Positions 2,608 to 29,463 of a DNA stretch of 64,000 nt are shown piece after piece (the first letter of the stretch is position 1; every line of letters starts with the position of its first letter). The notes under the pieces are model-generated. The model was not told where the DNA came from. It saw nothing but the letters and a program-made list of their open reading frames with translations, and did not search any database. The DNA is from Chitinophagales bacterium. GTDB lineage: Bacteria > Bacteroidota > Bacteroidia > Chitinophagales > UBA10324. The stretch spans positions 378,516-442,515 of the forward strand of contig JAIBAY010000004.1 of assembly GCA_019694975.1 (NCBI GenBank). Direction: 5' to 3'. A program made the translations under genes and the position numbers.

Positions 2608-2644
2608 AGAAAAATTGAACAGATAGATCAGCGGGGCAGATTGC

Positions 2645-2812: not shown

Positions 2813-2886
2813 ACGAATAGTCGGACTTAGTTATGAATTTAATCTTACGATGCTATCATATTTTATCCCTATAAAAACCAACTTTT

Positions 2887-3261: not shown

Positions 3262-3304
3262 GCAGTGTTTCTTAGATGAATGTGCATCAGATGCTTTCAT
3301 TGAC

Positions 3305-3470
3305 ATTCAATCATTCATCATTGAATATTGAATATTGGATATTGAATATTGGATATTGAATATTGAATATTCAACACTCAACACTCAACATTCAACATTC
3401 AACACTCAACACTCAACACGCAACGCTAACTACTCACTTTTAACTTTTCACCACTCACCACTCACCAAAC
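3305..3470 (-). repeat. Family-1 hairpin repeat, copy H2 (with CACTCAC-rich tail)
   Basis: Same arm order as H1 (TTGAATATTGG... then CAACACTCAACA...). The tail ACTACTCAC...CACCACTCACCACTCACC is the reverse complement of the head of the copy at 47117. Confidence 0.8.
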
Positions 3471-3476
3471 CCAACC

Positions 3477-5807: not shown

Positions 5808-5975
5808 CTCCGTTAGTCCGGATTTTTTTCCAATCCGGACTAACGGAGAAGAGGATTTCTAATCCTCACATATTTCACAAAGCTTCACAGCACCTCTCCG
5901 ATAGTCCGGACCTTTTTCCAATCCGGACCTGATGACAAAAGGATTTGTTAGTCCTCGCTATTTCTCGAACTTTCA
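5808..5975 (-). repeat. Family-2 mosaic repeat (terminal two-hairpin module), two tandem ~85-bp units in reverse orientation
   Basis: Unit 1 has a perfect 17-bp stem, CTCCGTTAGTCCGGATT (5808-5824) / AATCCGGACTAACGGAG (5832-5848), followed by AGGATTTCTAATCCT. Unit 2 (about 5893-5975) is a diverged copy. The reverse complement matches GGATTAAAAAATC...CCGGATTGGAAATAAATCCGGACTAAC at 30760-30818. Confidence 0.8.
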
Positions 5976-6215
5976 CAGTCCTTCCCATACTCTATAAATC
6001 TTATCTTGCCCAGGTTTAGCGAAGCATGACACGTTTCTTATTCGATAAGAAAGATCCCGCTATTCTTCATGGCAAAGCAGTATTTTTCAATGAGTAATTC
6101 CACCCCGCTGTCTCATTCTGATGAAAACAGCGGGTTAGGTATTACTTTTAGGAAAAAGTCCGTGTAATAACAGATACCATTCAAAAAAATGAAAACAGCA
6201 CAATAGCTGATAAAT

Positions 6216-8285
6216 ATGGATACAACTACTGGTGAAACAATTACCGATGTACAACAGGAAACCTTACTTCCTGTTGAAGGCTATTCACTGCTTACCGCTT
6301 ACGACATTGATCTTTTCAAGTCGGGCAAACATTATAAGCTGTATGAAAAGCTGGGCGCACACCTCGTTGAATACAAAAACACACAAGGCACCTGTTTCGC
6401 CGTCTGGGCGCCCAATGCCGCCATGGTTTCGGTAATCGGTAACTGGAATGGATGGAATAATCAGTCCCATAAACTGATTGCGCGTGGCGATGAGTCGGGC
6501 ATATGGGAAGGCTTCATTCCACACATTGGCAAAGGAGAAGCCTACAAGTATTACATACAATCCAACTTCGGCGGGGCAGCTTTTGAAAAGGGAGATCCTT
6601 TCGCATTTTATTGGGAACAGCCGCCGAAGACAGCTTCCATCGTTTGGGATACCTGGAAAGAATGGAGCGACGATGCCTGGATGGAATTCAGGAAGACAAA
6701 GAACAAACTCAATCAGCCGTTTTCGGTGTATGAAGTGCATCTCGGTTCGTGGCGGAGAAGCCCGGATGATCCTGATAAAGTGCTCGACTATAAACAGCTG
6801 GCGGAAGAATTATCGAAGTATGTGAAAGAAATGAATTTCACCCATGTGGAATTGCTGCCCGTGATGGAACATCCGTTCTATGGTTCATGGGGTTACCAGG
6901 TGACCGGATTTTTTGCACCCAGCTCCAGGTTCGGCGAGCCGCAGGATTTCATGCAGCTCATTGAAACATTGCACAAAAACGGCATCGGTGTCATCCTCGA
7001 TTGGGTGCCTTCCCATTTCCCGGGCGATGGCCACGGTTTGATTTATTTTGACGGCACGGCATTATATGAACATGCTGATCCCAGGAAGGGTTTTCACCCC
7101 GACTGGAACAGCTACATTTTCAATTACGGCAGAAATGAAGTGCGGTCGTTCCTGTTAAGCAATGCTTTTTTCTGGCTCGACCGTTATCATGCTGATGGAT
7201 TGAGAGTGGATGCCGTAGCATCCATGCTGTACCTCGATTATTCCCGCAAGCAGGGAGAATGGGAACCCAATATCCATGGAGGAAGAGAGAACCTCGAAGC
7301 CATTTCCTTTTTGCAGGAATTCAATACCGCCGTGTTTAAAGAGTTTCCGGATGTACAGACCATCGCCGAAGAATCCACCAGCTTTCCCAAAGTGACTCGG
7401 ATGGTTTCGGAAGGCGGACTGGGCTTCAGCATGAAATGGATGATGGGTTGGATGAATGACACGCTGAAATATTTTTCCACCGATCCCATCTACCGCAAAT
7501 ACCACCATAACCAGATTACTTTCAGCATCATGTATGCTTTCGCCGAAAATTTCATGTTGCCCTTTTCACACGATGAAGTGGTGCACCTGAAAAAATCGCT
7601 GCTCGATAAGATGCCGGGCGACCAGTGGCAGCAGTTTGCCAATATGCGGGCCATGCTCGTGTATATGTACACCCATCCGGGAACCAAGCTGCTATTCATG
7701 GGCGGCGAATTCGGGCAATACCGGGAATGGAACCACGAACAAAGTATAGACTGGCACCTGCTGGATTACAGTTCGCATAAAGGGTTGCAGCAACTCATGA
7801 AGGACCTCAATACGCTTTATACCAAAGAGCATGCGCTGTACGATAAAAATTTCTTACCCGACGGGTTTGAATGGATGAAGGTGGATGATGCGGAGCACAG
7901 CGTCCTCATCTATTGCAGGAAAGGCGTGAAAAAATCGGATGTCATGCTCATCGTGCTGAATCTCACTCCGGTGCCGCGTTATGATTACCGGACGGCTGTT
8001 CCGCTTCACGGTGAATGGAAAGAAATCCTTAATACCGATTCGGTGTACTACTGGGGAGCTGGGTTTACCACAAGAGGCAATGTGCATTCAGCAGCCACAC
8101 CGTGGGACGACAAGAGCCACTCCGTAGAAATTGACATTCCGCCGATGGCTGCCTTGCTGTTTAAGTATGTCGAAAAGCGGAAAAGACGGATCATGCCGTC
8201 GGAAGCGGAGATACTGCCGGTTGGCAAAAAGAAGGTATCCACTGCGAATGTGAAGAAACAAAAAGGCGTGAAAAAGAAAAACTGA
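6216..8285 (+). CDS. glgB: 1,4-alpha-glucan branching enzyme GlgB (with ~40-aa Lys/Arg-rich C-terminal tail)
   Basis: 689-aa ORF. Its GH13_9 motifs are AVWAPNA, GVILDWVPSHF, GLRVDAVASMLY, IAEESTSFP and FSHDEVVH. The tail is KRKRRIMPSEAEILPVGKKKVSTANVKKQKGVKKKN. Confidence 0.93.
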   Translation: MDTTTGETITDVQQETLLPVEGYSLLTAYDIDLFKSGKHYKLYEKLGAHLVEYKNTQGTCFAVWAPNAAMVSVIGNWNGWNNQSHKLIARGDESGIWEGFIPHIGKGEAYKYYIQSNFGGAAFEKGDPFAFYWEQPPKTASIVWDTWKEWSDDAWMEFRKTKNKLNQPFSVYEVHLGSWRRSPDDPDKVLDYKQLAEELSKYVKEMNFTHVELLPVMEHPFYGSWGYQVTGFFAPSSRFGEPQDFMQLIETLHKNGIGVILDWVPSHFPGDGHGLIYFDGTALYEHADPRKGFHPDWNSYIFNYGRNEVRSFLLSNAFFWLDRYHADGLRVDAVASMLYLDYSRKQGEWEPNIHGGRENLEAISFLQEFNTAVFKEFPDVQTIAEESTSFPKVTRMVSEGGLGFSMKWMMGWMNDTLKYFSTDPIYRKYHHNQITFSIMYAFAENFMLPFSHDEVVHLKKSLLDKMPGDQWQQFANMRAMLVYMYTHPGTKLLFMGGEFGQYREWNHEQSIDWHLLDYSSHKGLQQLMKDLNTLYTKEHALYDKNFLPDGFEWMKVDDAEHSVLIYCRKGVKKSDVMLIVLNLTPVPRYDYRTAVPLHGEWKEILNTDSVYYWGAGFTTRGNVHSAATPWDDKSHSVEIDIPPMAALLFKYVEKRKRRIMPSEAEILPVGKKKVSTANVKKQKGVKKKN

Positions 8286-9949: not shown

Positions 9950-12846
<2,897 letters not shown>

Positions 12847-14848: not shown

Positions 14849-15694
14849 TCATTCAATCCTTTTTCTGAATGCTGCAGGAGTGAACGCTTTTTTTCTCCTG
14901 AAAACGCGGTTGAAGTAAGTAATGCTTTCGAAACCGCATAACCCTGCAATTGTGGCGACCGTGCGATCGGTTTCCGTCAGCAAAGTACAAGCCTGCGCAA
15001 TTCTGATCTCATTCACATAGTCAGAATAAGTCTTTCCGGTTGTCCGTTTGAAAAATTTGCAGAACGCGCTGGATGAAAGATGGATAAGTTTCGCAGCATC
15101 TTTTAATGAAATTTTTTTTGCGAAGTTCCGGTTCACATATTGGCAAACCTGGTTGATGCGGCTTTCATTTTCAGCTCCTTTAACAGAAATGAAATAGCCG
15201 GAAGAAAGAGGCTGCGATCTGAGACCTGAGAGTAAACTGAGCAAATGCAACAAACGAATTATCCGCTGCGGACCGTTAGCTGCTGTGAGTGATTTGAGTT
15301 CGAGTATAGCTTCAGTTGTATCCTTTTTAAAATGCAATCCTCTCTTGCTATCCGTTAATAATTTTTTTATACCTCTAAATTCTGATAACTCCATGAATGG
15401 TTTCATCAGTTCATCAGCAAACTGAACCACTGTTGCGGTACTTTTCTTCTTTTGATTCATTGGAACACTTTCCCAGGTGTGCGGCAATCCAGGTCCCAGC
15501 AAAACCAAATCACCGGATTCAAAATTTTTCAGGCTGTCGCCCACCAATCGCTTACCGTGGCCGCTTTCAATCAGCGTGACCTCATACTCGGGATGATAGT
15601 GCCATCTGAATGGAAATCCCGCGATCGTGAAGCGGAAGGCAATAACGGACTGCATCCCTTTTTTTACCTTGATATCCTCAAAACTGGCTTTCAT
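14849..15694 (-). CDS. AraC family transcriptional regulator (cupin sensor + HTH)
   Basis: 281 aa. It has an N-terminal cupin (FRWHYHPEYEVTLIESGHG) and a C-terminal AraC HTH (ATIAGLCGFESITYFNRVFRRKKAFTPAAFR). It is divergent from the PhyH operon. Confidence 0.88.
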   Translation of the reverse strand: MKASFEDIKVKKGMQSVIAFRFTIAGFPFRWHYHPEYEVTLIESGHGKRLVGDSLKNFESGDLVLLGPGLPHTWESVPMNQKKKSTATVVQFADELMKPFMELSEFRGIKKLLTDSKRGLHFKKDTTEAILELKSLTAANGPQRIIRLLHLLSLLSGLRSQPLSSGYFISVKGAENESRINQVCQYVNRNFAKKISLKDAAKLIHLSSSAFCKFFKRTTGKTYSDYVNEIRIAQACTLLTETDRTVATIAGLCGFESITYFNRVFRRKKAFTPAAFRKRIE

Positions 15695-15823
15695 GCTGCA
15701 CTATATTTTCTTGAATATAGCTATAAAATTACCAGTATTGTCAATATAGTGCCAATATTTGCTGCTATCGTGTTGTCCGGCTACGGGAATTTCTGCAATT
15801 TTTGTATTCAATTAAAACTGCTT

Positions 15824-16660
15824 ATGAACAACATCACACCTGCACTCTCACTAAAATGGAATAAACCATATTCCATTAGCAATGAGCAAATCAACTTTTT
15901 TAAAAAGAATGGATTCATTAAACTCAAAAATGTATTTACGCCTGAAGAGCTTCATTATATGGATGCGGTCATCACTCAGCAGGTTGACCGTTTGAATACA
16001 GAACGAAAATCTTTACAGGAGCGCGACACTTATGGTAAAGCATTCCTGCAGATTATGAATATCTGGACACAGTCTGATACCGTAAAGGAAATTGTTTTCA
16101 GCAAACGGATAGCAAAGATTGCGGCGAATCTGATGGAAGTTGCCGGCACGCGCCTCTACCACGATCAGGCCTTGTTTAAGGAGCCGGGCGGAGGCCACAC
16201 GCCCTGGCATGCTGATCAGTTCTACTGGCCACTGGAAACCGACAGAACCATCACTGCCTGGATTCCACTGCAGGAAACACCGCTGGAAATGGGACCACTT
16301 GAATTTGCGGCACAAAGCTATAAACTCATTGCTGGGCGTGAACTGATGATCAGCGATGAAAGTCAGGAAAAGTTAGATGGTAACCTGAAAATAAACAACT
16401 TCCCGCACATCATCGAGCCATTTGAAGCAGGTGAAGTAAGCTTTCATTCCGGATGGCTATTTCATCGTGCAGGCGCAAATAAAAGTGGTCAGATGCGCAA
16501 GGTGATGACCATGATTTATATGGATCAGGAAATGAAACTGAAAAAGCCTGAAAATGAAAATCAGGTCAACGACTGGCATCGATGGTGCCCCGGAGCTGAA
16601 GTTGGTAAAGTGATCAACACACAGTTAAACCCTGTTCTTTATTCCCGCAATGAAGATTAA
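15824..16660 (+). CDS. phytanoyl-CoA dioxygenase (PhyH) family Fe(II)/2-oxoglutarate oxygenase
   Basis: Start taken at ATG 15824 (MNNITPALS); the longer ORF from 15452 overlaps the AraC gene. It has an HxD motif (TPWHADQFYW) and a distal His (SFHSGWLFHRAGAN). Confidence 0.8.
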   Translation: MNNITPALSLKWNKPYSISNEQINFFKKNGFIKLKNVFTPEELHYMDAVITQQVDRLNTERKSLQERDTYGKAFLQIMNIWTQSDTVKEIVFSKRIAKIAANLMEVAGTRLYHDQALFKEPGGGHTPWHADQFYWPLETDRTITAWIPLQETPLEMGPLEFAAQSYKLIAGRELMISDESQEKLDGNLKINNFPHIIEPFEAGEVSFHSGWLFHRAGANKSGQMRKVMTMIYMDQEMKLKKPENENQVNDWHRWCPGAEVGKVINTQLNPVLYSRNED

Positions 16661-17483
16661 GTTCATATGCCCGTTTTGGGGTCAGGAACACCTGGATGCA
16701 GCAACCTTTGTTGCTAAGGTAATTGACCATGGATTTGATGGTATTGAAATCAATCTGCCTGTTGAAGGTTCTTTTACCCATCAGTTTTTGAAGGCGATTG
16801 AAAATGTTCGCATAACCAATCCGGAATTTATTTTCATTGCACAGGCAATGGTTACGGAAGATATTCTTGAGTTCACTGATCACCGCAGCAGCCTCGAAAG
16901 CAGATTGCAACAGCTCGTCAGTTTCCGGCCTGGCTTCATCAATGCACACACGGGCAAAGACCATTATTCATTTGACGACAATTGCAGGATCATTGAGTCC
17001 TGTATGAATATCAGTGTAAAATCAAACATCAGTATTTTGCACGAAACACATCGTGGAAGATTTTCATTTCATACAGCCACACTCATTCCATATCTGGAAA
17101 AATTTCCCGGGATAGCATTAACAGGTGACCTTTCCCATTTTTGTGTGGTTTCGGAGAACCTGTTACAAGATCAGCAGTCACTGTTACAAAAGATCTACCC
17201 TCATATCCAACATCTTCATGCACGGGTTGGGCAAGAACAGTCACCACAGGTGAATGATCCGTTTGCTCCTGCATGGAGAGGTCATCTTAAAGTGTTTTTG
17301 GATTGGTGGAATGAAATCATCCGCTGTAAAATTCAGGAGGGCAATGAAATGTTTACTGTTTGTCCTGAGTTTGGTCCGGCTCCTTACCTGCCCGATGATT
17401 CAGCCATACAACAACCAAGCGCTTATCAATGGAACATGAATGTTGTCATGAAAAATTTTCTCCAGGAATATTTATTAGTATGA
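16650..17483 (+). CDS. xylose-isomerase-like TIM-barrel protein (sugar phosphate isomerase/epimerase family)
   Basis: 277 aa with FDGIEINLP and HARVG-type motifs. It overlaps the PhyH stop by 11 nt, and its stop overlaps the next start (ATGA). Confidence 0.6.
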   Translation: MKIKFICPFWGQEHLDAATFVAKVIDHGFDGIEINLPVEGSFTHQFLKAIENVRITNPEFIFIAQAMVTEDILEFTDHRSSLESRLQQLVSFRPGFINAHTGKDHYSFDDNCRIIESCMNISVKSNISILHETHRGRFSFHTATLIPYLEKFPGIALTGDLSHFCVVSENLLQDQQSLLQKIYPHIQHLHARVGQEQSPQVNDPFAPAWRGHLKVFLDWWNEIIRCKIQEGNEMFTVCPEFGPAPYLPDDSAIQQPSAYQWNMNVVMKNFLQEYLLV

Positions 17484-19465
17484 ACCATACATTATTACAA
17501 TTATTTGTGTACACGATTGCAATTTTTCTGTTATCGTTCAAACCATGCTCTGCACAGTCTATGACGAGCGATCCGTTTAAAAAAATAAAGCCTGTTCCCG
17601 AACAGTTTCAGCAATTGCCACTCAATGCAGTCAGGCCAACAGGCTGGCTGCTGATGCAGTTACGGGAAAACCTTAATGGCTTCACCGGCTATCTGGATGA
17701 GTTAGCTCCCGATCTGTTAGTAAAAGATGATATCTACGGAACAGACCGCTTAACGAAGCATGTGGAAAGTAAAGATGTGGGAGCTGTTGCAGAGGGTGGC
17801 GACTGGCAGGTGCAGTTTCTGTGGTGGAACAGTGAAACACAGAGTAACTGGTGGGATGGTTATATCAGGACAGCTGTGTTATTGAATGATTCCGCAGCGC
17901 TTGATAAGGCCCAAAAATATATTGATAGAATTTTAAGTACGCAGGATGCAGATGGATATCTTGGAATCTACGATAAGGAATTGCGTTACCATTTCGACAA
18001 TGAAAATGGAGAGCTGTGGTCGAAAGCTACGTTGCTGAGAGGGCTGCTCGGATGGTATGAATACACTAATGACCCGGAAATATTGAAAGCCATACAACGT
18101 GCAATTGACAATGTGATCGCCAATTATCCGGTTAATCAATCTCATCCTTTTTACTCCGTGAATCCAAATGCAGGCGGGCTTACCCATGGCCTTGCTTTTA
18201 CTGATGTGCTTGAAAAATTATATCAGCATACAGTCAATCCGCAATATCTGGACTACTGTCTTTTCCTGTATAAGGATTTTTCTCAACAAAATTTAAATGA
18301 AGATGCGCAGTATAAAAAGCTTATCGACGGTGCGCTTCCGCTGCAGGGGCACGGAGTGCATACCTATGAACACCTGCGCTCAGTTGCAGCAGCATATTAT
18401 GCGTCCGGAAATGACGATTTGAAATTTGCCATGAATGAATTTCTCAAAAAAATTGCTGCCTGTATCACCCCATCAGGCGCACCTGTCGGCGATGAATATA
18501 TTGCCGGCAGAAAGGCAGATCCGCTCAATACCGGTTATGAGTATTGTTCTTTGCATGAGTTGCTGCAGGCCTATACCAGCCTGTTGGCTAAAACTGGTGA
18601 AGCATCTTATGGCGATAAAACAGAACAGCTGTTTTTTAATGCGGCTCAGGGGGCAAGATATCCTGACGGGAATTCCATTTGTTATCTGAAGACGGACAAT
18701 TGCTATTATCTGACCGGTGGCATGAATGGTGATACAACCAACAAAAAGCAAACGAGATACCGTTACTCACCGGTGCACAAAGAGGCAGCGGTTTGCTGTG
18801 TACCGAATGCAGGCAGGATCGGACCGGCTTACATTCAAAGTATGTGGATGAGAAATGCAGATGAACTGGTTGCAACTTTGCTTGGCCCTTGTGAAGTGAC
18901 GGCGAGTGTGAAGGGTCAGCAGGTGCTGATCCAGGAAATCACCAACTATCCTTTCGACAACGGCATCACATTTAGAATCAAAACAAAACAACCTATATAC
19001 TTCACACTAAAAATCAGAAAACCTGTATGGGCATCGAAATTTGCCTGCCCGGTAAAACATCAATTGAAGGATGATTACATCGTAATCAGGAAAGAATGGA
19101 ATGACGGAGATACCTTCACCATTCATTTTGATTCATCTGTTATTACCGAAACAGCATCCAACGGTGAGTACTTCTTCAGGTATGGTGCACTTGTGCTTGC
19201 GCATCCAATTACGGCTGCAGAAAGGATAACGAAACGATTTCCGGTTGGCGGGTTTACTGAATTTACCTGCACGCCGGATCAGCTTACTATTTATCAATAT
19301 ATAGAAAACAGCACTGTCCGGCCGGCTGCATCAGGTGACCTTCGCAGCGAGTTGACATTCCGGACTACGCTGTTCAATCCGGCAACCGGTTTGGAAGAAG
19401 AACTGGATTTGAAACCCATGTCGAAAACCACTTTAAGGCAGGTGACTTACAAGAGGAAAGAATAG
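17480..19465 (+). CDS. GH127-like (DUF1680) beta-L-arabinofuranosidase family protein, secreted
   Basis: Start at MNHTLLQLFVYTIAIFLLSFKPCSAQ (signal peptide). It has a GYEYCSLHE motif (E-x-C) and KEAAVCCVPNAGR (Cys-Cys), which match the Zn/Cys catalytic arrangement of GH127. Confidence 0.7.
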   Translation: MNHTLLQLFVYTIAIFLLSFKPCSAQSMTSDPFKKIKPVPEQFQQLPLNAVRPTGWLLMQLRENLNGFTGYLDELAPDLLVKDDIYGTDRLTKHVESKDVGAVAEGGDWQVQFLWWNSETQSNWWDGYIRTAVLLNDSAALDKAQKYIDRILSTQDADGYLGIYDKELRYHFDNENGELWSKATLLRGLLGWYEYTNDPEILKAIQRAIDNVIANYPVNQSHPFYSVNPNAGGLTHGLAFTDVLEKLYQHTVNPQYLDYCLFLYKDFSQQNLNEDAQYKKLIDGALPLQGHGVHTYEHLRSVAAAYYASGNDDLKFAMNEFLKKIAACITPSGAPVGDEYIAGRKADPLNTGYEYCSLHELLQAYTSLLAKTGEASYGDKTEQLFFNAAQGARYPDGNSICYLKTDNCYYLTGGMNGDTTNKKQTRYRYSPVHKEAAVCCVPNAGRIGPAYIQSMWMRNADELVATLLGPCEVTASVKGQQVLIQEITNYPFDNGITFRIKTKQPIYFTLKIRKPVWASKFACPVKHQLKDDYIVIRKEWNDGDTFTIHFDSSVITETASNGEYFFRYGALVLAHPITAAERITKRFPVGGFTEFTCTPDQLTIYQYIENSTVRPAASGDLRSELTFRTTLFNPATGLEEELDLKPMSKTTLRQVTYKRKE

Positions 19466-19609
19466 TTACAGTTCAACTTTATGATAGTGAATTGCGATCA
19501 GTAAGTTGGTATTTCCCTGCAATCGTTCAATTTTTCATTGCATATTTTTTAATCTGTAAAGCTTCTGAAGAACTTAACATCTTGCTTTTTGGGTAAGAAA
19601 TGAACTGGT

Positions 19610-21754
19610 ATGATACGTCACATTATTTTCCTGTACGCTGCTCTTATATTAACAGGTTGTGAAGAAGAATCACAGCTTGCAAAAACGGACTACACGCAGT
19701 ATGTAAACACATTCATTGGCACAGATGGCACCGGCCATACATTTCCCGGAGCCTGTATGCCCTTTGGAATGGTACAGCCAGGACCTGACAATGCCGACAG
19801 GGGTTGGGAATATGCCAGCGGATATCAGTACAGAGACACTGTCATCCTTGGCTTTTCACAAACAAGAGCCAATGGCACAGGCATCAATGAATTTGGTGAT
19901 GTACTGCTGCAGCCTGTTACGGATAATAGAATAGAAGGGTTTGGTCAAATAAAACTGAAAACATCTGAAAGCGCTTCACCCGGATACTACACAGTTACCT
20001 TGCAAAATAAAGTGAGAGTTGAATTGACTGCTACGGAAAGGGTCGCATTCCATCAGTATAGCTATCCTGGTCATCAGGCAAAGTTATTGGTTGATCTGCA
20101 ACATGGCCTGCGGTTTCTGACAGATTCATTAGTGTTGGAAAGCAATGTGCAGATCGAGAATGACACCACAATTTACGGTTACTGTCATACCAGGAATTGG
20201 GTAGAGCGTAAATACTTTTTTGTGATCCGCTTCAGTCAACCCTTCTATGCTGCCCTGCAACTGGAAAGGAAGCCACAGGAAAATGCACCACGTTATGTTT
20301 TGAGTTTTAATTTGAAGGATATGATGCTGAAAGCAAAAATTGCTTTATCAACAGTGAGTGTGAGCGGAGCTGAAAATAATCTGCAAAGAGAATTGCCCGG
20401 CTGGGATTTCATGAGAACAGTTTCCAATGCAAAAAACAGCTGGAATAAATATTTGAGCATGATAGATATTGAAGGAGATAAGCGACAAAAGGAGATTTTC
20501 TACACTTGCCTGTATCGTTTATTCATTCAACCCGCAAACATTGCTGATGCAGATGGCCGTTACAGAGGTGCCGATGATTCGATTCGTACTGCTGAGCACG
20601 GTGAATACTATTCAATGCTTTCATTGTGGGATACTTACCGTGCTGCCAATCCATTGTACACCATCCTTGTTCCTGAAAAAGTGTCCGGCCTGGTGAATAC
20701 CATGATAGCGCATAGTAAGGCAGCGGGCTTCCTTCCCATCTGGACAGCATGGGGACAGGATAATTATTGTATGATTGGTAATCATGCCATTCCGGTGATC
20801 GCAGATGCATACCTGAAAGGAATTCCTGGTTTTGATGCAGAGGATGCGCTCAGGGAAATGATAAAATCAACAACAGTAAACCATATTAACAGCAACTGGA
20901 GCTTACTCGACAAGTATGGCTATTATCCCTTCGACAGCTTAGACAATGAAGCTGTATCACGTACACTTGAGCACGGTGTAGATGATTATTGCATCGCACT
21001 TATGGCCGACAAGATGGGTAAGCAAAACATTGGACAGCAGTATTACAAACGTTCAATGCTGTATAAAAATCTTTATGACAGTACTACACAACAAATGCGG
21101 GGAAAAGACAGCAAAGGATATTGGCGCACTCCTTTTAATCCGTTAATAGCCACTTCTCCCCTGAGTAATCCCGGCGACTATACAGAAGCCAATGCATGGC
21201 AATATTTCTGGACACCGGCACAATATGATATAGCCGGTATGATTCAATTGCTGGGCGGCAAGAAAAAATTCACTGCGCAACTCGACAGTTTCTTCAGTAT
21301 TCAAACTCCACATCCCAATAAATATTTAGGGCAGGAAGCCATGATTGGCCAATACGCTCATGGCAACGAGCCCAGTCATCACATTGCCTACCTCTACGCT
21401 TATGCTGAGAAGCCGGAAAGAGGAAGACAGATTATTACGCAAATCTGCAATCAGTTTTATGGTAATACGCCGGATGGAATGATTGGTAACGATGACTGCG
21501 GACAAATGAGTGCCTGGTATATTTTTTCAACACTTGGCTTTTATCCGGTAAATCCTGCAAGCGGCGAGTATGTGTTTGGAATGCCTCAGGTAAAGAAGGC
21601 AGTCATTTATCTCAGCAACGGCAAATCTTTAACCATTGAAAATGAAATGCAGGATTCACACCAGGTCACTGCCTGTTTTGATGGCCAACCGGTTTCCAAT
21701 CCATTCATTGAACATGCAACAATCAGCAAAGGCGGTGTTTTGGTATTTAAATAA
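19610..21754 (+). CDS. GH92 family alpha-mannosidase lipoprotein
   Basis: 714 aa with a lipobox (ILTGC). The GH92 N-terminal signature is YVNTFIGTDGTGHTFPGACMPFGMVQPGPDN, and the catalytic-domain motifs are GNEPSHHIAYLY and NDDCGQMSAWY. Confidence 0.92.
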   Translation: MIRHIIFLYAALILTGCEEESQLAKTDYTQYVNTFIGTDGTGHTFPGACMPFGMVQPGPDNADRGWEYASGYQYRDTVILGFSQTRANGTGINEFGDVLLQPVTDNRIEGFGQIKLKTSESASPGYYTVTLQNKVRVELTATERVAFHQYSYPGHQAKLLVDLQHGLRFLTDSLVLESNVQIENDTTIYGYCHTRNWVERKYFFVIRFSQPFYAALQLERKPQENAPRYVLSFNLKDMMLKAKIALSTVSVSGAENNLQRELPGWDFMRTVSNAKNSWNKYLSMIDIEGDKRQKEIFYTCLYRLFIQPANIADADGRYRGADDSIRTAEHGEYYSMLSLWDTYRAANPLYTILVPEKVSGLVNTMIAHSKAAGFLPIWTAWGQDNYCMIGNHAIPVIADAYLKGIPGFDAEDALREMIKSTTVNHINSNWSLLDKYGYYPFDSLDNEAVSRTLEHGVDDYCIALMADKMGKQNIGQQYYKRSMLYKNLYDSTTQQMRGKDSKGYWRTPFNPLIATSPLSNPGDYTEANAWQYFWTPAQYDIAGMIQLLGGKKKFTAQLDSFFSIQTPHPNKYLGQEAMIGQYAHGNEPSHHIAYLYAYAEKPERGRQIITQICNQFYGNTPDGMIGNDDCGQMSAWYIFSTLGFYPVNPASGEYVFGMPQVKKAVIYLSNGKSLTIENEMQDSHQVTACFDGQPVSNPFIEHATISKGGVLVFK

Positions 21755-21966
21755 AGTGGTTAAGTGAGCATGTAAGTTGAAAAGGTGCAGATGAATGAAG
21801 TGCGTAGAAATTTTCACAGGTATTCAGCAATAAATTCAAATCGCCACTGATTAGTCACATTTGTAACTGTTACTAGTCTGGGTCTTTCGCTTGCTTTGAT
21901 CAGTCAACCAACGGGGCATATTTTGATCTATATCAGGAACAGTATGTTGGAAAGCAGGCGGTGCAG

Positions 21967-22749
21967 TTATGATTGCCCGCTGAGCATGATTTCTATTCCG
22001 CCAAATGAATTCCATACATAAGAAATGGTTGCCGTGCTGCCTGGAAGAAGATTTAGCATTAGTTTATTGGAACTATAGATCAGGCCCCGCCGAAGCTGGA
22101 CTTCATATTTTCCCTGTTCGAGAGAAAATTTATAAGTCAGTTTGTTAACGAGTATTTCACCAATTTTTTTACCATTGACTAATACGTTTATGTTGCTTTC
22201 ACTCTGGAGGAAACCCGGAGCCTTGTTAAAAAAACATAGTTGTGCTTTTTGCAATGACTCATTGGGGCGCCGGCTGGGGAATTTTTGAAGATATTTGGTT
22301 AAGCCATGAACGCCATTTTTAAATGCATCAAAATCTGTGTCTAACTTGAATTGCTCTGCATTTACCAGGCTGACAAGGCTCGAAGGCAAATCCATTTTGT
22401 GTGGTTTTTGGGCTTTGTCGAGCAAGACAACCACCAATGGTATTTTCTTTTCGAGGGCTTTTTCCAGTTCCATCCGTACAGGATCATCCGCCCTGTCAAT
22501 CTTACGGGCTCTGCCTTCATTGCCGGTCGTGGCATTTAACCAATTGTGTCCGATGATGGCTAGTACAACATCTGAATTCTCCAGTTCTTTTATCATCTTT
22601 TTTTCAAAGTCCTGGCCAACCTTGATCTTTTCCGTGTCTATGAATACCTCAATCGGATACTCTGCTGTGCTTAAACGTAACAATGCTTTTTCCAATGCAT
22701 GTGATTCATGCAAACTGTCATCCCGGCGGTAACTGAGAAAGAAACGCAT
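21967..22749 (-). CDS. TIR-domain protein with PEGA-like C-terminal beta domain (TIR-A)
   Basis: 260 aa. The N-terminus is MRFFLSYRRDD, followed by VFIDTEKIKVGQDF, SDVVLAIIGHNWL and DPVRMELEKALEKKIPLVVVLLD (TIR_2 pattern with a conserved Glu). The C-terminal ~100 aa read INVLVNGKKIGEI...GKYEVQL. Confidence 0.8.
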   Translation of the reverse strand: MRFFLSYRRDDSLHESHALEKALLRLSTAEYPIEVFIDTEKIKVGQDFEKKMIKELENSDVVLAIIGHNWLNATTGNEGRARKIDRADDPVRMELEKALEKKIPLVVVLLDKAQKPHKMDLPSSLVSLVNAEQFKLDTDFDAFKNGVHGLTKYLQKFPSRRPNESLQKAQLCFFNKAPGFLQSESNINVLVNGKKIGEILVNKLTYKFSLEQGKYEVQLRRGLIYSSNKLMLNLLPGSTATISYVWNSFGGIEIMLSGQS

Positions 22750-22762
22750 ACTGTTTAAAAAT

Positions 22763-23524
22763 TTAGTTCTCTGACCTTAGTGAAAGCGTACCCCAATGCG
22801 CATTTCGATCTGCATATAAAACAGACACCTGTTGAGATCTGACTTTTATTCGGCATTCGCATTGTTTGCCAACTTTATTGCCCGGTTTGATTGCAACAAT
22901 ATGTTCTCCGGGAATAACCTTGTGTTCAAATGTTTTGTTTATCAACTGCAAGGTTCCCACTGTTTCATTATCAATCAAAATAATGGCAGGAGGATATTCT
23001 GTTTCGAGGTAGTGGCTGATGAACCCCCCTTTTTTGGTGCGAATCTGAATAGTGCCATATTCAACAGATGGGAGCCATGCACTCTCGTCTCCGGGAGACC
23101 TAAGCATTTCAACAACCTGCATTACATCTTTCTCAAAAGAAGTATTCCTGATGGTGGCGGCATGTATGGTTGCAAAGGCAGTTAATGAAGGCGGGATATC
23201 CTGCTTCCCGGGCATTCTTGCTTCATCAATCAGCAGTGGGGCAATACGGATGTGAGTGTTTTTCAGCGCAGCAGTCAATTCCCGGTTTACATAGTCGCCC
23301 GGCGCATTTAGTATCGTAGCGGATTGTTTGACCGTGCGTAGCCAGTTTTTTCCTATCACCACCAACACCACATCCATATCTCTGATTATTGAATCAATGG
23401 TTGCAGCAGTTGTCTGTGGGTTACTTTGTTTAACTTCTAATGCTGGTAAATGCTCCTGTATATACAGACGGAGTCTTCCTACAAAACCTTTGTCATCCGG
23501 ATGATAGCTTATATATAGACGCAT
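22763..23524 (-). CDS. divergent TIR-domain protein with PEGA-like C-terminal beta domain (TIR-B)
   Basis: Start taken at ATG 23524 (MRLYISYHPDD); the ORF track starts at a GTG at 23554. Motifs are MDVVLVVIGKNWL and DYVNRELTAALKNTHIRIAPLLID. The C-terminus reads AIILIDNETVGTL...GEHIVAI. It ends 13 nt upstream of the TIR-A start. Confidence 0.7.
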   Translation of the reverse strand: MRLYISYHPDDKGFVGRLRLYIQEHLPALEVKQSNPQTTAATIDSIIRDMDVVLVVIGKNWLRTVKQSATILNAPGDYVNRELTAALKNTHIRIAPLLIDEARMPGKQDIPPSLTAFATIHAATIRNTSFEKDVMQVVEMLRSPGDESAWLPSVEYGTIQIRTKKGGFISHYLETEYPPAIILIDNETVGTLQLINKTFEHKVIPGEHIVAIKPGNKVGKQCECRIKVRSQQVSVLYADRNAHWGTLSLRSEN

Positions 23525-23845
23525 ATCAAAAAAATTAAAGCCGTTGTGAGTCACTACAGCGCACTGAAAAAGGTGTTGACCAATATTCCGCCCTCTCTTT
23601 AATGCACAAATTAACGGAATAAAACTTTATGTATTTTGATAATATTAATCTTATTGCCGCAACAAACAGCTGATATAATACCAGGATTTTATGGAATAAG
23701 GCAGTGTATTATTTCACTGCAGCTTACTATGTTTTGAATAATGGTGATTGGAGTATTTTCAAAGTTTATGGGATTGGGTCAGTTGTTGGTCCGGGTTTCC
23801 ACAGGCTTCAATGAGGCCGGCAATCGTGAAAAATGCCGGGCAAGA

Positions 23846-23912
23846 GGATTATCAGGATTTCCAAACTCAATATTCATTACCCGACGCCCAATATCCAATC
23901 TTCAATATCGGG
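23846..23912. repeat. degenerate fragment of the intergenic repeat families
   Basis: GAGGATTATCAGGATTTCC followed by ACTCAATATTCATTACCCGACGCCCAATATCCAATCTTCAATATCGG, which resembles the right arm of the array hairpins. Confidence 0.5.
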
Positions 23913-24145
23913 CCGATGGTCAGCGTTGCCGCTTCATTTTTATGCGGGGTCTGGTTTATAAAAACCTTCTAGAGGGTGTCCATCCTGTTTTTATTTCATG
24001 ACAATCAAAATGGTAAAACCCAAGTTGAAATTGTCATGAAAATGCAATACTGTTTAATGAATTGATGTGAAGTGTAAACAAAATAAATTGCCGGTGGTTA
24101 AGACATGCATTCATCACAAATTAACTAACCAAAAAAACTTCTACC

Positions 24146-25864
24146 ATGAAACGAAAATCCATCTTCTTATCCGCCTTGTTGCTTGTTACAAGTGTCAACC
24201 TTTTTGCAACAGCGCGTTTACAGGTAATTCACAATGCAGCAGATCTTGCAGCCGCAACAGTTGACGTTTGGCTCGATAACACCCTGCTCCTGAACGATTT
24301 TAATTTCCGGACGGCTTCACCCTTTATTGATGCGCCATCAGGCGTCGCTTTTAAAGTGAGTATTCAGCCTGCAAACAGCACGGATACGGTGAATGCCTTA
24401 TTCACTAAAAATTTTACACTCACCGCCGGAAAAACCTATGTGGTGATCGCCAATGGCATCGTAAGCCCATCGGGTTATTCACCTGCCACACCTTTTGATC
24501 TATATGCTTATGATATGGGTAAGGAATCTGCGGCGCTGTCTACCAACACCGAAGTCATGGTATTTCACGGAGCAACCGATGCACCGGTAGTGGATGTGAA
24601 AGAAGTAGGCGTTGGTGCAGGTACCATCATTGATGACCTGGCATACGGCGATTTTACAGACTACCTGGCTTTGCCTACCGCTGATTATTCCCTGCAGGTG
24701 CGTGATGCACATGGCATTACAACCGTAGCGCAATATGATGCACCACTGGCTACCTTAGGTCTGAATGGTGCGGCAGCTGTTGCACTGGCTTCAGGATTTT
24801 TGAATCCTGCGGTAAACAGCAATGGCCCCGCTTTTGGTATTTATGTGGCGCTGCCGTCAGGTGGAAGCTTAGTGGCCCTTCCTGCAGCCGCAATTTCCAC
24901 CGCCCGTGTGCAGGTAATTCACAATGCTTCCGATGCTGCTGCAGCTACGGTGGATGTATGGCTGAATGATACCAAACTGATAGACAATTTTATATTCAGG
25001 ACAGCCACTCCTTTTATTGATGCTCCTGCCGGTGAAAGCTTCACCATTGCGATCAAGGATCAGAACAGCACCAATGCCGACAACCCGATTGCTTCCTTTA
25101 ACTACACCCTGGAAGGTGGCTCCACCTACCTGCTGGTGGCAAACGGTATTGTAAGTGCTACGGGCTACAATCCTGCACCTGCTTTTAACCTGGATGTATT
25201 TGCAGCCGGCCGTGAACGCGCTACCGAAGCTGTGAACACCGATGTTTTGGTATACCATGGCTCAACCGATGCTCCTGTGGTTGACATCGTGGAAACTGGT
25301 GCAGGTGCGGGCACGATTGTTAATGATATTGCCTATAAACAGTTTGCCGGATACCTCGAACTGCCAACAGCAGATTATAAACTTGACGTGCGTGATGAAA
25401 CAGGTACCACTACTGTAGCATCATATGAGGTACCGCTGGCTGCTCTTTCCTTACAGGATGAGGCACTCACCGTGCTGGCTTCAGGATTTCTGAATCCGGC
25501 CAGTAACAGTAATGGCCCTGCATTTGGTTTGTATGTGGCATTGGCAGCCGGTGGTGAATTGCTTGCGCTTCCCTTAGCTACCGGAATTGAGGAAGTTGCA
25601 TCCACCCTTTCAGCAGTAAGCATGTTTCCTAATCCTGCCCGTGATGCAGTTAATCTGCAATTCGACCTTGACTTGCCGGGTGAGGTGCGGTTGGAAGTGT
25701 TCAATGTACTGGGTTCAAGGATGCTGACGCAAAATTTAGGAATGAAATCGTCGGGAACCCATAGCACTACACTGAATGTAAATCAACTTCCGGAAGGACT
25801 TTACATCAGCAAGATTGTTGCCGGTACTGACGAGCAGGTTTCGAAACTGATCGTAAGCCGATAA
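24146..25864 (+). CDS. T9SS-secreted protein with two DUF4397-like domains
   Basis: 572 aa with a signal peptide. There is an internal duplication (ARLQVIHNAADLAAATVDVWL... at 24212-24889 and ARVQVIHNASDAAAATVDVWL... at 24902-25576). The C-terminal T9SS sorting domain is MFPNPARDAVNLQF...GLYISKI...KLIVSR. Confidence 0.8.
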   Translation: MKRKSIFLSALLLVTSVNLFATARLQVIHNAADLAAATVDVWLDNTLLLNDFNFRTASPFIDAPSGVAFKVSIQPANSTDTVNALFTKNFTLTAGKTYVVIANGIVSPSGYSPATPFDLYAYDMGKESAALSTNTEVMVFHGATDAPVVDVKEVGVGAGTIIDDLAYGDFTDYLALPTADYSLQVRDAHGITTVAQYDAPLATLGLNGAAAVALASGFLNPAVNSNGPAFGIYVALPSGGSLVALPAAAISTARVQVIHNASDAAAATVDVWLNDTKLIDNFIFRTATPFIDAPAGESFTIAIKDQNSTNADNPIASFNYTLEGGSTYLLVANGIVSATGYNPAPAFNLDVFAAGRERATEAVNTDVLVYHGSTDAPVVDIVETGAGAGTIVNDIAYKQFAGYLELPTADYKLDVRDETGTTTVASYEVPLAALSLQDEALTVLASGFLNPASNSNGPAFGLYVALAAGGELLALPLATGIEEVASTLSAVSMFPNPARDAVNLQFDLDLPGEVRLEVFNVLGSRMLTQNLGMKSSGTHSTTLNVNQLPEGLYISKIVAGTDEQVSKLIVSR

Positions 25865-25887
25865 TGTGCCTGGTCAGATTTCAGGGA

Positions 25888-25918
25888 AAGAGGCATCCGG
25901 AAGGGTGCCTCTTTTTTA
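25888..25918 (+). terminator. rho-independent terminator
   Basis: AAAGAGGCA-TCCGGAAGGG-TGCCTCTTT followed by TTTTATTT. Confidence 0.8.
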
Positions 25919-26047
25919 TTTATCTGTCTTGAGTTATTGATGCCATTGCTGTACTTTGAAAAGCGCTATAGGAAGCACTGGCCAAAAACCTATTAAAGTT
26001 TCAGGGCAGGATAAGGATTCATAAATCGCACCTATCTTCTTGCAGCA

Positions 26048-26845
26048 TTAATATTTTTCTTCAGCAAAGTCCACCCAGCCTTTCTCAAAGTCAGATTCGC
26101 TTACACCTAAAACAGTTTGGATGTCAACGTAGGATGTAATCAAAACGGGCAATTTGTCTTTGCCCCATGTCTCAACTATATATTCGATAATAGTGTAACC
26201 AACATTATAAATTTGATTGCTTTGGTTCAATTCATTCAGGGTAAGATTTTTTCTCATCCCATACTTCACACTGATGTTATTTACGATATGCGCTTCGTAG
26301 TCGCAGATTGCCTCCCAAAACCATTGGGGATATTCCTTGCTAAACTTCTCTTCAAACATTTTGTCAAAATCTCCGGTGTCCTCATTGCCCCATCTTCCCT
26401 GTTCTTCTTTTATAAGAATGTTCAGCTGAATGCAATGCGTAAATTCATGAATCGCTGTCTTTACCGGATCATCGGGAAGAATGCTGTTATACCAGTTTGT
26501 CCAAAGTAAATGAAATTCGTTGGGGCCGCGGCTTACACCGTTTGCATTACTGTTTAAAAGTCCTGTAGCTTTATTAAAGTCGGCCTGTGCCGGATGAACA
26601 AATACCCGGATTGTATCGTGGTCCGGATCATTCAAATCTGTCCTGATGCTGTTGTAATTTTCTTCCAGGTTGTCAGCAAGGTCTTGTGCTTCTTCTGTGT
26701 AAATCCCCTGATATGAAATGATAAAATGATCAGTTCTGCATTCTGTTAATTTGTCCACGACCGTAAAACTTCGAAAGGTCTTCATACCGAAGCAGGTAAT
26801 GACCAGTCCGCCAAATATTAATAGAATGGTTTTTAGTTTCTGCAT
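26048..26845 (-). CDS. putative MA-clan zinc metallopeptidase-like protein (HExxH), membrane-anchored or secreted
   Basis: 265 aa with an N-terminal hydrophobic anchor (ILLIFGGLVITCFG). It has an HExxH motif (AIHEFTHCIQ) and a downstream Glu-rich helix (WFWEAICDYEAH). Confidence 0.55.
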   Translation of the reverse strand: MQKLKTILLIFGGLVITCFGMKTFRSFTVVDKLTECRTDHFIISYQGIYTEEAQDLADNLEENYNSIRTDLNDPDHDTIRVFVHPAQADFNKATGLLNSNANGVSRGPNEFHLLWTNWYNSILPDDPVKTAIHEFTHCIQLNILIKEEQGRWGNEDTGDFDKMFEEKFSKEYPQWFWEAICDYEAHIVNNISVKYGMRKNLTLNELNQSNQIYNVGYTIIEYIVETWGKDKLPVLITSYVDIQTVLGVSESDFEKGWVDFAEEKY

Positions 26846-26899
26846 TGTCCTTTAATTGCTATCTCTTAACTATCGACGGGTCTCTGTAAAAAGCGTTTT

Positions 26900-27052
26900 G
26901 CTGCCAACGGTTGCCAGCCTTGCATTGATGCCGTTGGTCTTTGCAAAGCGTTGAGGGAAGCAGAGACCAACAAGCTGTTAAAGATACAAGGCAGAATGCG
27001 GATTGGACATCCGATTCTCTATCTGTTCCGACCAAAAAATCAGGACTAACAT
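26900..27052 (+). repeat. Family-2 mosaic repeat, copy a
   Basis: CCGTTGGTCT-TTGCAAAGCGTTGAGGGAAGCAG-AGACCAACAAGCTGTTAAAG, then GGATTGGACATCCGATT, then a CAGGACTAAC tail. Confidence 0.75.
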
Positions 27053-27090
27053 TGCAATTTACTGCTGCTGTAAAGCGAAATGAACCAGCG

Positions 27091-27981
27091 TTATTGTGTT
27101 TCAGTATCAATGGCCTGTTGAGGTGGTGAGAGTTGATGGCGTTTCGTCCAGAAATAAACAGCAAAAAGGAGGCAAACGACTGGCAGCACTGCGCCAAACT
27201 CATCGACGTAATATTTTGTGTTGCCGGTATCAGCGGTAAGTGGTGTAAATATCATTTGAATAAACAGGTTATGACTGCCGTGAAGCAATACTCCTGTCCA
27301 AAGACTCCCTGACCGCAGGCGAAACCATGTAAAAATGAAACTGAGTCCAATCACCATCGCGGTGAAACAACTCAGTGCATAACAGGCAGACGTGCCGCTG
27401 TTGTAATCTGCAAAAAGTAAAATGGGATAATGCCAAAGCGCCCAGATGATTGCTGCTACGATTGCTGTTTTAGTATAGCCCAGTTTTTTGTACAACTCCG
27501 GTACCAGGAAACCGCGCCAACCTATTTCTTCACCTAAAGCGGTGGCGCAACTGCTGGGAAGTCCATAGAGCGCACCGAGGATAAAAAAGAAAGCAATCGT
27601 AACTGCGGTTGGTAAAGTTCCGAAACCGAAATTGTCAGTAACTGCTTTAACATAGTCATGGTTGTAAAAGCCGCCCCATCCAACTGCCCAGATTACTGAA
27701 TAGGCAATGAGTGCATACAGGAAAGGAACAAGATAACTCCAAACCTGCAAACGGGTGTTGCCCCATTGCCATCCCAACAATGATATTTTCCTGTTCAGTA
27801 TCCTTGATGTAATCAGCGCAGAGAGTCCGGGACACCACATCAGGCCGGTAACATAAAGTCCAAACCCACTGCCGATTTTTCCCGTATGAATTATGAGCAG
27901 ATAGAAAGCGGCACTCAATGAAAAAGTGATCAGCAGGAATGTGAGGATTGCTCTTATGCTTTTATCAGGTGCATCTTGCAT
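27091..27981 (-). CDS. CPBP family intramembrane glutamic endopeptidase (CAAX/Abi type)
   Basis: 296 aa, polytopic. It has motif 1 EEIGWRGFL, motif 2 ALWHYP and motif 3 HGSHN. Confidence 0.85.
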   Translation of the reverse strand: MQDAPDKSIRAILTFLLITFSLSAAFYLLIIHTGKIGSGFGLYVTGLMWCPGLSALITSRILNRKISLLGWQWGNTRLQVWSYLVPFLYALIAYSVIWAVGWGGFYNHDYVKAVTDNFGFGTLPTAVTIAFFFILGALYGLPSSCATALGEEIGWRGFLVPELYKKLGYTKTAIVAAIIWALWHYPILLFADYNSGTSACYALSCFTAMVIGLSFIFTWFRLRSGSLWTGVLLHGSHNLFIQMIFTPLTADTGNTKYYVDEFGAVLPVVCLLFAVYFWTKRHQLSPPQQAIDTETQ

Positions 27982-28983: not shown

Positions 28984-29463
28984 TTACTTATTTTCTAACA
29001 TGTTTGTAGCAGTTTTATCACCAAGTTGTTCAGCCAGTCCTATAAGTAGTCCTTCGGTACCACGAATGTAGCAGAGCTTGTACATGTCTCCAAACCGAAC
29101 CACTTCTCCAACGAGTTTTGCACCATGTTTTAAAAGCCTGGTTAGCAATTCGTCAAGATTGTCGACCCTAAACATGACTCTCAAATAGCCAAGAGCATTC
29201 ACCGGTGCTTTTCTATGGTCAGCTATAGTCTTTGGGTTGTGAAATTGTGAAAGTTCAAGCCTGCTGTGCCCATCCGGAGTTACCATCATGGCAATTTCCA
29301 CTTGTTGATTCTCAAGGCCTGTTACCCGTCCGGCCCACTCCCCTTCCACCTTCATTCGACCTTCGAGTGACAGTCCGATTTCTGTGAAAAATGAAATGGC
29401 ATTGTCAAGAGATTCCACCACAATGCCGACATTGTTCATTTCCATTAGTTTACTTTTTGACAT
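28984..29463 (-). CDS. VOC family protein (glyoxalase/bleomycin-resistance/dioxygenase fold)
   Basis: 159 aa with MNNVGIVVESLDNAISFFTEIGLSLEGR and a second beta-alpha-beta-beta-beta module. Confidence 0.8.
   Translation of the reverse strand: MSKSKLMEMNNVGIVVESLDNAISFFTEIGLSLEGRMKVEGEWAGRVTGLENQQVEIAMMVTPDGHSRLELSQFHNPKTIADHRKAPVNALGYLRVMFRVDNLDELLTRLLKHGAKLVGEVVRFGDMYKLCYIRGTEGLLIGLAEQLGDKTATNMLENK

Follow-up and report, generated by a model that had tools for sequence, protein, structure and literature searches.

Paired TIR genes as a candidate two-protein NADase module: a SARM1-like TIR protein always encoded with a degenerate paralogue

TIR NADases, the TIR-domain enzymes that consume nicotinamide adenine dinucleotide (NAD+), are an immune currency common to bacteria, plants and animals, and the central open question for each of these systems is how they are held inactive and then activated. 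We describe here a pair of genes, named tirA (upstream) and tirB (downstream), that appear as two minus-strand open reading frames (ORFs) in a stretch of 64,000 nucleotides (nt) of a Chitinophagales bacterium, which was analysed as a whole and is called the window in what follows. Each gene codes for a TIR domain followed by a small beta-sandwich that resembles PEGA domains. The pair is a conserved unit, A then B, with obligate pairing, and both its anatomy and its conservation across phyla are solid. The pair is no new type of system, NADase systems based on TIR domains being well known already. What appears to be new is the obligate association of a SARM1-like TIR with a degenerate TIR paralogue, both of them fused to a PEGA-like sandwich that is probably cytoplasmic.

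The pairing is best appreciated when the family is followed outside of the window. A word-indexed search retrieved eight full-length relatives of each protein, all from Chitinophagales-type metagenomes or metagenome-assembled genomes (MAGs), while an exhaustive search with the C-terminal domain added about 20 proteins of 236-292 amino acids (aa) having the same TIR plus sandwich architecture. The family is extremely rare: in a set of 1.84 billion representative proteins it forms about 20 clusters at 50% identity. Once near-identical loci have been merged, an A-type gene is found directly upstream of a B-type gene in 13 distinct lineages, which include Chitinophagales and an Actinomycetota MAG: the window locus, with which L006-L009 are grouped; L001/L002; L003-L005; a contig of JGI 3300047160; L010/L011; L012/L013; L095 to L098, which count for one lineage each; L100, merged with L151; L101, merged with L103; and L169/L170, from the Actinomycetota MAG. 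The two genes overlap by 1 nt at one extreme and lie 46 nt apart at the other (the 13-nt gap of the window is repeated in L001-L005), in hosts where the G+C content (GC) ranges from 0.41 to 0.70, and no solitary A or B gene was seen at any locus where flanking sequence was available. Most of the 70 metagenomic loci collected with the B-family alignment are TIR-only relatives with other C-terminal parts, the members of the family being L099-L101, L103 and L151. At 45-75% protein identity, synonymous sites are saturated. One locus, L014, which had been considered as a decayed copy with a frameshifted tirB and a gap of 650 nt, was discarded: its contig (contig_7113, ERZ25039581) passes abruptly, within a MIP-channel gene near position 3500, from a GC of 0.40 to one of 0.73, and both tir genes carry frameshifts, all of which mark a chimeric, error-rich assembly.

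TirA and TirB are paralogues along their whole length (24% identity over 235 columns, E 3e-10), as had been proposed in the original prediction made on this stretch of DNA, and the N-terminal TIR domain that it assigned to both is recognized by the Pfam model TIR_2 (PF13676, gathering cut-off 28 bits) at 42.5 bits in TirB and 33.0 bits in TirA; the same model matches 14 of the 14 members of the family alignment A2. AlphaFold2 (AF2) models built from the family alignments, with a mean predicted local distance difference test score (pLDDT) of 81.7 for TirB and 82.5 for TirA, display in each protein a flavodoxin-like TIR (about residues 1-150) followed by a beta-sandwich of seven or eight strands. 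When the TirB model was compared with the Protein Data Bank (PDB) using Foldseek, places 1 to 25 were all taken by the TIR domains of SARM1 or of its Caenorhabditis elegans counterpart TIR-1 (E 4.5e-8, template modelling (TM) score 0.83 relative to the target), and SPARTA, ThsB and AbTir ranked far below. The best match of the TirA model is again the TIR of SARM1, followed by the heterodimer formed by the TIR domains of plant RPS4 and RRS1 (4c6t), and the TIR of RRS1 (4c6s) was matched as well; chains of SPARTA match the TIR part alone of the two proteins. The same relationship emerges at the sequence level, where a profile of 13 close homologues run against the whole PDB sequence set picked up SARM1 chains only (E 5.5e-6), the E642A structure 7cm7 among them. 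In the corresponding alignment the family-invariant glutamate (E94 of TirB, E82 of TirA) falls on residue 642 of full-length SARM1, which is established as its catalytic residue. The glutamates of DPVRMELEKAL and DYVNRELTAAL, which had been placed beforehand at the catalytic position of NADases, are thus where they were expected, and they are invariant among the 13-14 close homologues.

The two members of the pair are not under the same constraint. This is visible when 14 B-type and 21 A-type TIR domains are aligned with SARM1. The SYR[RH] motif is kept in 14/14 B-type proteins and often altered in A-type ones; the BB loop (F[IL]D, then G-x-[DN]-F) is present in 14/14 of the former and 0/21 of the latter; the catalytic glutamate never varies among the B-type sequences that extend far enough to include it, and 11 of the 21 A-type sequences, most of them from high-GC lineages, have L, V, A, T or F in its place. 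In the window itself, S6-Y7-R8-R9 of TirB corresponds to S567-Y568-R569-R570 of SARM1, and its BB loop, FIDTEKIKVGQDF, is shared with that of SARM1, FIDVEKLEAGKF. The window TirA retains the glutamate; it is devoid of the BB-loop motif, with R8 changed to histidine and the second arginine of SYRR to proline. The loss of the D-x-x-I-x-x-G region, noticed from the outset in the upstream copy, is therefore confirmed, and it is common to 21/21 A-type relatives. Conservation of these motifs in B together with their decay in A makes it likely that B is the NADase and A a non-catalytic partner; the asymmetry supports this view, being the pattern expected for a pair made of an enzyme and a pseudo-enzyme. 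The early suggestion of a catalytic-plus-regulatory pair is in this way well supported, both by the order of the genes in the 13 lineages and by the fate of their motifs.

The second domain is less straightforward to name. Pfam PEGA (PF08308, gathering cut-off 20.8 bits) matches none of the 14 family members, and their C-terminal domain collects sub-threshold Pfam matches, all weak, to DUF2846, BcsB and TcaA_3rd_4th, the best of which is DUF2846 with 20.9 bits for a cut-off of 34.3 (E 3.8e-4), in the B family only. The PEGA-like pattern that had been announced for this region is nevertheless upheld, even if no Pfam model recognizes it above threshold: a profile built on the domain and run against the 1.84 billion representative proteins gave 391 matches, topped by giant proteins with 11-28 Pfam PEGA repeats, and hhalign aligned it with the PEGA repeat profile at 96.2% probability (E 2.3e-9), across a core of the form I-x-[IV]-[DN]-G-x-x-[IV]-G...PG-x-H-x-V. 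Judging from shared matches and from hhalign how the domain is related to the PEGA, DUF2846 and CarboxypepD_reg beta-sandwiches, we find it a fair description to call it PEGA-like at the level of the superfamily, and not a member of PF08308. It differs from PEGA in that it lacks the P-E-G-A and G-x-T-P signatures, and in that the host protein has no recognizable signal peptide. Domains of the PEGA type are usually extracytoplasmic, in surface or periplasmic proteins. Neither TirA nor TirB has an N-terminal hydrophobic segment, because the beta-A strand of the TIR domain begins at residue 2, and this suggests that both are cytoplasmic proteins.

The layout of the locus is given in Table 1. The arrangement of two same-strand genes 13 nt apart was correctly described in the original prediction, coordinates included, as verified with the list of ORFs and with the starts of the homologues, and such a short spacer implies co-transcription. 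The start of tirA was placed at the ATG at 23524 and not at the in-frame GTG at 23554, because all homologues begin with MRLYISY; the upstream intergenic region, previously given as 590 bp, then measures 621 nt, while it would be 591 nt when counted from the GTG. On one side tirB converges with a plus-strand GH92 gene (19610-21754), and on the other side tirA diverges, across the 621 nt, from a plus-strand DUF4397 gene with a type IX secretion system (T9SS) sorting domain (24146-25864).

Table 1. Features of the tirA-tirB locus (positions in the window)
Feature	Position	Strand	Description
tirA	22763..23524	-	253 aa, start MRLYISYHPDD; degenerate TIR and PEGA-like beta-sandwich; proposed non-catalytic partner or regulator
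TirA TIR domain	23090..23524	-	about residues 1-145; from alignments and model secondary structure
TirA Glu82 codon (GAA)	23279..23281	-	position of SARM1 E642
TirA C-terminal PEGA-like beta-sandwich	22766..23062	-	about residues 155-253; seven strands in the AF2 model, profile search, hhalign
tirA-tirB spacer	22750..22762	-	13 nt
tirB	21967..22749	-	260 aa, start MRFFLSYRRDD; SARM1-like TIR and PEGA-like beta-sandwich; proposed catalytic NADase subunit
TirB TIR domain	22285..22749	-	about residues 1-155; phmmer/hmmsearch alignments to SARM1 chains
TirB BB-loop motif F36-I-D-T-E-K-I-K-V-G-Q-D-F48	22606..22644	-	aligned with SARM1 FIDVEKLEAGKF
TirB Glu94 codon (GAA)	22468..22470	-	aligned with SARM1 catalytic E642
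TirB C-terminal PEGA-like beta-sandwich	21970..22257	-	about residues 165-260; AF2 strand pattern, profile search, hhalign, weak DUF2846
Divergent intergenic region between tirA and the DUF4397-T9SS gene	23525..24145	.	621 nt, GC 0.372

The immediate neighbours of the pair change from one context to the next. They are GH92 and DUF4397 in the window locus and in L006-L009, a 2OG-Fe(II) oxygenase and a T9SS protein of 1741 aa in L001/L002, small ORFs and an M20 peptidase in L003-L005, a glyoxalase and a 166-aa ORF in the contig of JGI 3300047160, a CCG-domain protein and Arr-ms in L010/L011, and DUF1801 and DUF1670 in L012/L013. No conserved effector or partner gene adjoins the pair across these contexts, and the 20 ORFs of the window that surround it are annotated by Pfam as metabolic and envelope genes only. 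The remark that none of the usual partners of TIR proteins is at hand holds beyond the window: no gene for ThsA, SIR2, SLOG, CD-NTase, STING, SAVED, Argonaute, reverse transcriptase or STAND was met within about 10 kb of the pair, either there or in any other context for which flanking sequence exists. Among 80 Bacteroidota loci sharing the AraC-PhyH-GH127-GH92 cluster that precedes the pair in the window, none carries it; the closest is only 73% identical, with different downstream neighbours too, and the comparison shows that the pair is not associated with the GH92 cluster, without providing a clean insertion site. This cluster (14849-21754: AraC regulator, PhyH dioxygenase, 277-aa ORF, GH127, GH92) recurs, with its genes partly shuffled, in dozens of genomes of Bacteroidota that range from Chitinophagaceae to Flavobacterium, and looks like a widespread glycan-utilisation unit with an unusual PhyH-family dioxygenase.

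Other features of these neighbourhoods deserve to be recorded for their own sake. A gene of the glyoxalase/bleomycin-resistance fold lies near the pair in three unrelated contexts (28984-29463 in the window, 5951-6478 in the contig of JGI 3300047160 and 9210-9692 in L095), and is immediately adjacent to it in two of the three; the fold is very common, and the recurrence may be coincidental. In the Actinomycetota MAGs (L169 1635-2766, L170 2-1157) two genes of the same strand come before the pair, one for a 218-aa protein with an HExxH-like AHEQGH motif and one for a 154-aa HEAT-like protein; no homologue of either was found beside the pair in the other lineages. In L010, a Chitinophagales relative, the pair is directly followed (11063-11509) by the gene of a rifampin ADP-ribosyltransferase, Arr-ms, a user of NAD+, after which comes a Fur regulator. 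The contig of JGI 3300047160 encodes, 3-5 kb upstream of the pair (1399-3496), a protein with an eCIS_core domain as well as a NUDIX hydrolase, and is the only context with a neighbour possibly related to conflict. The largest ORF of the window is a plus-strand one of 2250 aa (55267-62019).

Two assertions about the composition and the upstream region did not survive analysis. The pair had been seen as more AT-rich than its neighbours: its GC is 0.424 for a window mean of 0.449 (standard deviation 0.029 in windows of the same size), which places it at the 20th percentile, and its GC at third codon positions (GC3), 0.40-0.43, is that of the flanking genes, so that an AT-rich island is ruled out. 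As a separate matter, GC3 is 0.40-0.44 in all genes from GH127 to an Rce1-like protease (17429-27981), for 0.49-0.58 in housekeeping genes elsewhere in the window; it is this whole 10-kb stretch, and not the TIR pair alone, that differs in codon composition. The upstream spacer had also been described as carrying repeat debris, where we find short matches with few copies (two to four) and one 12-nt palindrome. Within 23525..24145 there is no significant repeat, no terminator, no Rfam match and no sign of a regulatory RNA, and promoter-like sites are as frequent as in shuffled sequence; the spacer presumably holds the promoter of the pair. The palindrome is a perfect 12-nt inverted repeat (23994-24005 and 24030-24041, TTTCATGACAAT ... 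ATTGTCATGAAA, 24 nt apart), located about 105 nt upstream of the DUF4397/T9SS gene, and could be an operator site or form a small hairpin.

How could such a pair work? We propose that tirA-tirB is a co-transcribed two-gene module specifying two cytoplasmic paralogues, each with an N-terminal TIR and a C-terminal PEGA-like sandwich. TirB would be an NAD+ glycohydrolase or cyclase endowed with a complete SARM1-type active site, comprising SYRR, the BB loop FIDxEKIxxGxDF and the glutamate; its cleavage of NAD+ is what motifs and models point to. TirA would be a non-catalytic TIR working with TirB, most likely in a hetero-oligomer held by contacts between TIR domains or between sandwiches. It is established for SARM1, AbTir, SPARTA and TIR-STING that TIR NADases need head-to-tail assembly. 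TirA might then either keep TirB inactive or nucleate a head-to-tail array of TIR domains forming composite active sites, while the beta-sandwiches would be candidate input domains, or domains for assembly and oligomerisation. The simplest output, because no separate effector gene accompanies the pair, would be direct depletion of NAD+ by TirB, which would arrest growth or cause abortive infection, in the manner of SARM1, SPARTA, TIR-STING and SpbK. We give this explanation, taken as a whole, about an even chance of being right. The contact between TirA and TirB, the trigger and the part played in conflict belong to its more conjectural side, a role in defence being plausible. Such a role is reasonable because partner-less TIR proteins triggered by phages are documented (PMC11350192, PMC12847820). 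Rarity, occurrence in distant phyla and neighbours that do not repeat themselves fit an accessory set of genes that moves horizontally. A bolder version is possible, and we hold it with more doubt than belief: a paired-TIR immune module where the pseudo-enzyme TirA gates the SARM1-like TirB by hetero-oligomerisation and where the cytoplasmic sandwiches are direct receptors of proteins of phages or other invaders, that is, a prokaryotic counterpart of RRS1/RPS4 that would have spread horizontally between Bacteroidota and Actinomycetota.

A number of observations weigh against the proposed module, and it is preferable to consider them together. At the level of the proteins, W638 of SARM1, the aromatic residue of the W-x-x-x-E helix, is a proline in TirB and P, A, Y or F across B-type proteins, and this replacement could lower the activity of TirB or alter its product; the predicted TM score (pTM) of the AF2 models is just 0.58-0.65, which leaves the two-domain arrangement uncertain; and a role as a cytoplasmic sensor is, to our knowledge, unprecedented for a domain of the PEGA type. 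At the level of the genome, PADLOC has no model for TirA and yields only weak and partial ThsB matches for TirB. No integrase or transposase was found near the pair, no homologue was found on known phages, and plasmids gave TIR-only partial matches with no full-length one; no two-domain analogue was retrieved from BFVD. Composition is native, as seen above. Enrichment near defence islands, which had been put forward as a means to evaluate the idea, was looked for in a small sample, and PADLOC models match just 2 of the 73 proteins encoded beside the pair in 7 contexts (PD-T4-6 and PD-T4-2_B), both taken as generic domain matches; together with the metabolic and envelope nature of the window neighbours, this leads us to reject a defence island on the present sample. 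The view of the pair as a conflict module is therefore circumstantial. It retains the rare, patchy and cross-phylum distribution in a context that differs each time, and it has lost the link with defence islands, mobile genes, anomalous composition and copies on phages or plasmids.

Other ways to account for the pair must be set against this background. If the surroundings are to be our guide, namely the ordinary metabolic and surface-protein genes found in every context, with native composition and neighbours that are not enriched in defence genes, the module could belong to physiology, the pair making an isomer of cyclic ADP-ribose or trimming the NAD+ pool on cue (starvation, envelope stress) with no part in conflict. 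We consider this unlikely: the family is extremely rare and scattered over distant phyla without conserved neighbours, the pair is absent from the 80 related Bacteroidota loci that share the GH92 cluster, and no signal receptor is linked to it. A housekeeping pathway would not be distributed in this way, while an accessory set of genes that moves horizontally would. Patchiness across phyla, variable context and the missing link with defence islands would also suit an addiction module, in the manner of toxin-antitoxin (TA) pairs, TirB being a constitutive NADase toxin held by TirA as a stoichiometric pseudo-enzyme antitoxin, for post-segregational killing or response to stress without phage sensing. 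The order of the genes, non-catalytic first and catalytic second, recalls type II TA operons, as does their close packing, with stop and start codons that may overlap. Yet TirA equals TirB in size and shows neither a DNA-binding nor a disordered domain of the kind found in antitoxins, half of the A-type proteins still possess the glutamate, TIR NADases are normally inactive before they assemble, and plasmids and phages, which commonly carry addiction modules, yielded no copy, so that this remains a distinctly improbable account.

Two further possibilities touch upon the enzyme activity itself. TirA and TirB might act as multiple ThsB sensors in a Thoeris-like system, sending a nucleotide signal to an unlinked ThsA, caspase or other effector; Thoeris loci often have more than one TIR gene, and TirB has weak, partial matches to the ThsB models and to ThcB4 (NCBIfam, Thoeris type III). 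The latter, however, is a match of 38 bits for a cut-off of 220, limited to residues 2-65, no effector was found within 10 kb in any context, although defence systems that move horizontally nearly always keep sensor and effector linked, and TirA is deprived of the catalytic motifs that would make it the producer of an alternative signal. We see very little chance that this is correct. Smaller still is the credit we give to the idea that both proteins are scaffolds, used as adaptors or for assembly, with a conserved glutamate that is structural. Many TIR domains are indeed adaptors, and W638 of SARM1 is not conserved in the family, but the full SARM1-type constellation, which has decayed in A, is preserved without change in B from one phylum to another, an asymmetry that fits an enzyme and a pseudo-enzyme.

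Should the NADase module proposed here be confirmed in its outline, it would be a minimal, two-protein case: an active TIR of the SARM1 type always accompanied by a degenerate paralogue, with the same small sandwich and no other partner. Regulation by a pseudo-TIR is so far known mainly from the paired nucleotide-binding leucine-rich repeat receptors (NLRs) of plants. If TirA and TirB do form a complex, they would offer a compact model of a TIR enzyme regulated in this way, and a cytoplasmic PEGA-like domain would join the repertoire of TIR input modules. Current tools for the annotation of defence genes would miss the family, because it is represented neither in PADLOC nor in the literature searched, where no SARM1-like TIR paired with a degenerate TIR, both with a PEGA-like sandwich, was found; NCBIfam has no specific name for the pair either.

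It remains to situate the pair among known systems. Those that rely on cyclic nucleotides or on an Argonaute may be taken first: neither SAVED, STING, CARF nor a cNMP-binding domain, as used in CBASS, Pycsar and type III CRISPR, is present in TirA or TirB, no cyclase is found among the neighbours, and there is no match to APAZ or Argonaute that would recall SPARTA. Thoeris is similar in that the C-terminal part of its TIR protein varies and that some loci have several TIR genes. It differs in that no ThsA or other effector accompanies the pair in any context (none of SIR2/SLOG, Macro/TM, caspase and similar proteins within about 10 kb where flanking sequence is available), in scores that are far under cut-offs (the PADLOC ThsB model matches TirB at E 7.5e-5 over residues 2-66 only, and TirA not at all), and in that TirA does not seem to be a second active sensor. 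The plant pair RRS1/RPS4 associates an inactive TIR with an active one, which it restrains. Here too an inactive TIR would be encoded beside an active TIR, and both the heterodimer 4c6t and the RRS1 TIR 4c6s are among the fold matches of TirA; RRS1 and RPS4 are large NLRs with NB-ARC, LRR and integrated decoys, coded by head-to-head genes, and the likeness is one of analogy, homology being limited to the TIR fold.

Two comparisons are left. TIR-V and TIR-VI as well as TIR-IX of Escherichia coli, and SpbK of Bacillus, are partner-less TIR defence proteins that respond to the portal, tail-tube or tail-fibre proteins of phages by becoming active, and they stop growth, SpbK through NAD+ depletion (PMC11350192, PMC12847820). 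Like TirA and TirB they combine a TIR with one small variable domain and have no separate effector gene; no relationship in sequence beyond the TIR fold was found, nor any matching PADLOC model, and they are single genes, whereas TirA and TirB are two co-encoded paralogues, one of them catalytically degenerate, with a PEGA-like second domain. SARM1 and TIR-1, finally, are the best structural match for both proteins and the sole PDB family matched by the sequence profile, a likeness that in TirB covers SYRR, the BB loop FIDxEKxxxG..F and the glutamate equivalent to E642. It is restricted to the TIR: SARM1 is built as ARM-SAM-SAM-TIR, while the bacterial proteins have neither ARM nor SAM nor the scaffold of an octamer, and carry a PEGA-like sandwich after the TIR. 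With the tryptophan at 638 replaced, TirB is thus a SARM1-like TIR that, unlike SARM1, comes paired with a degenerate paralogue of its own.

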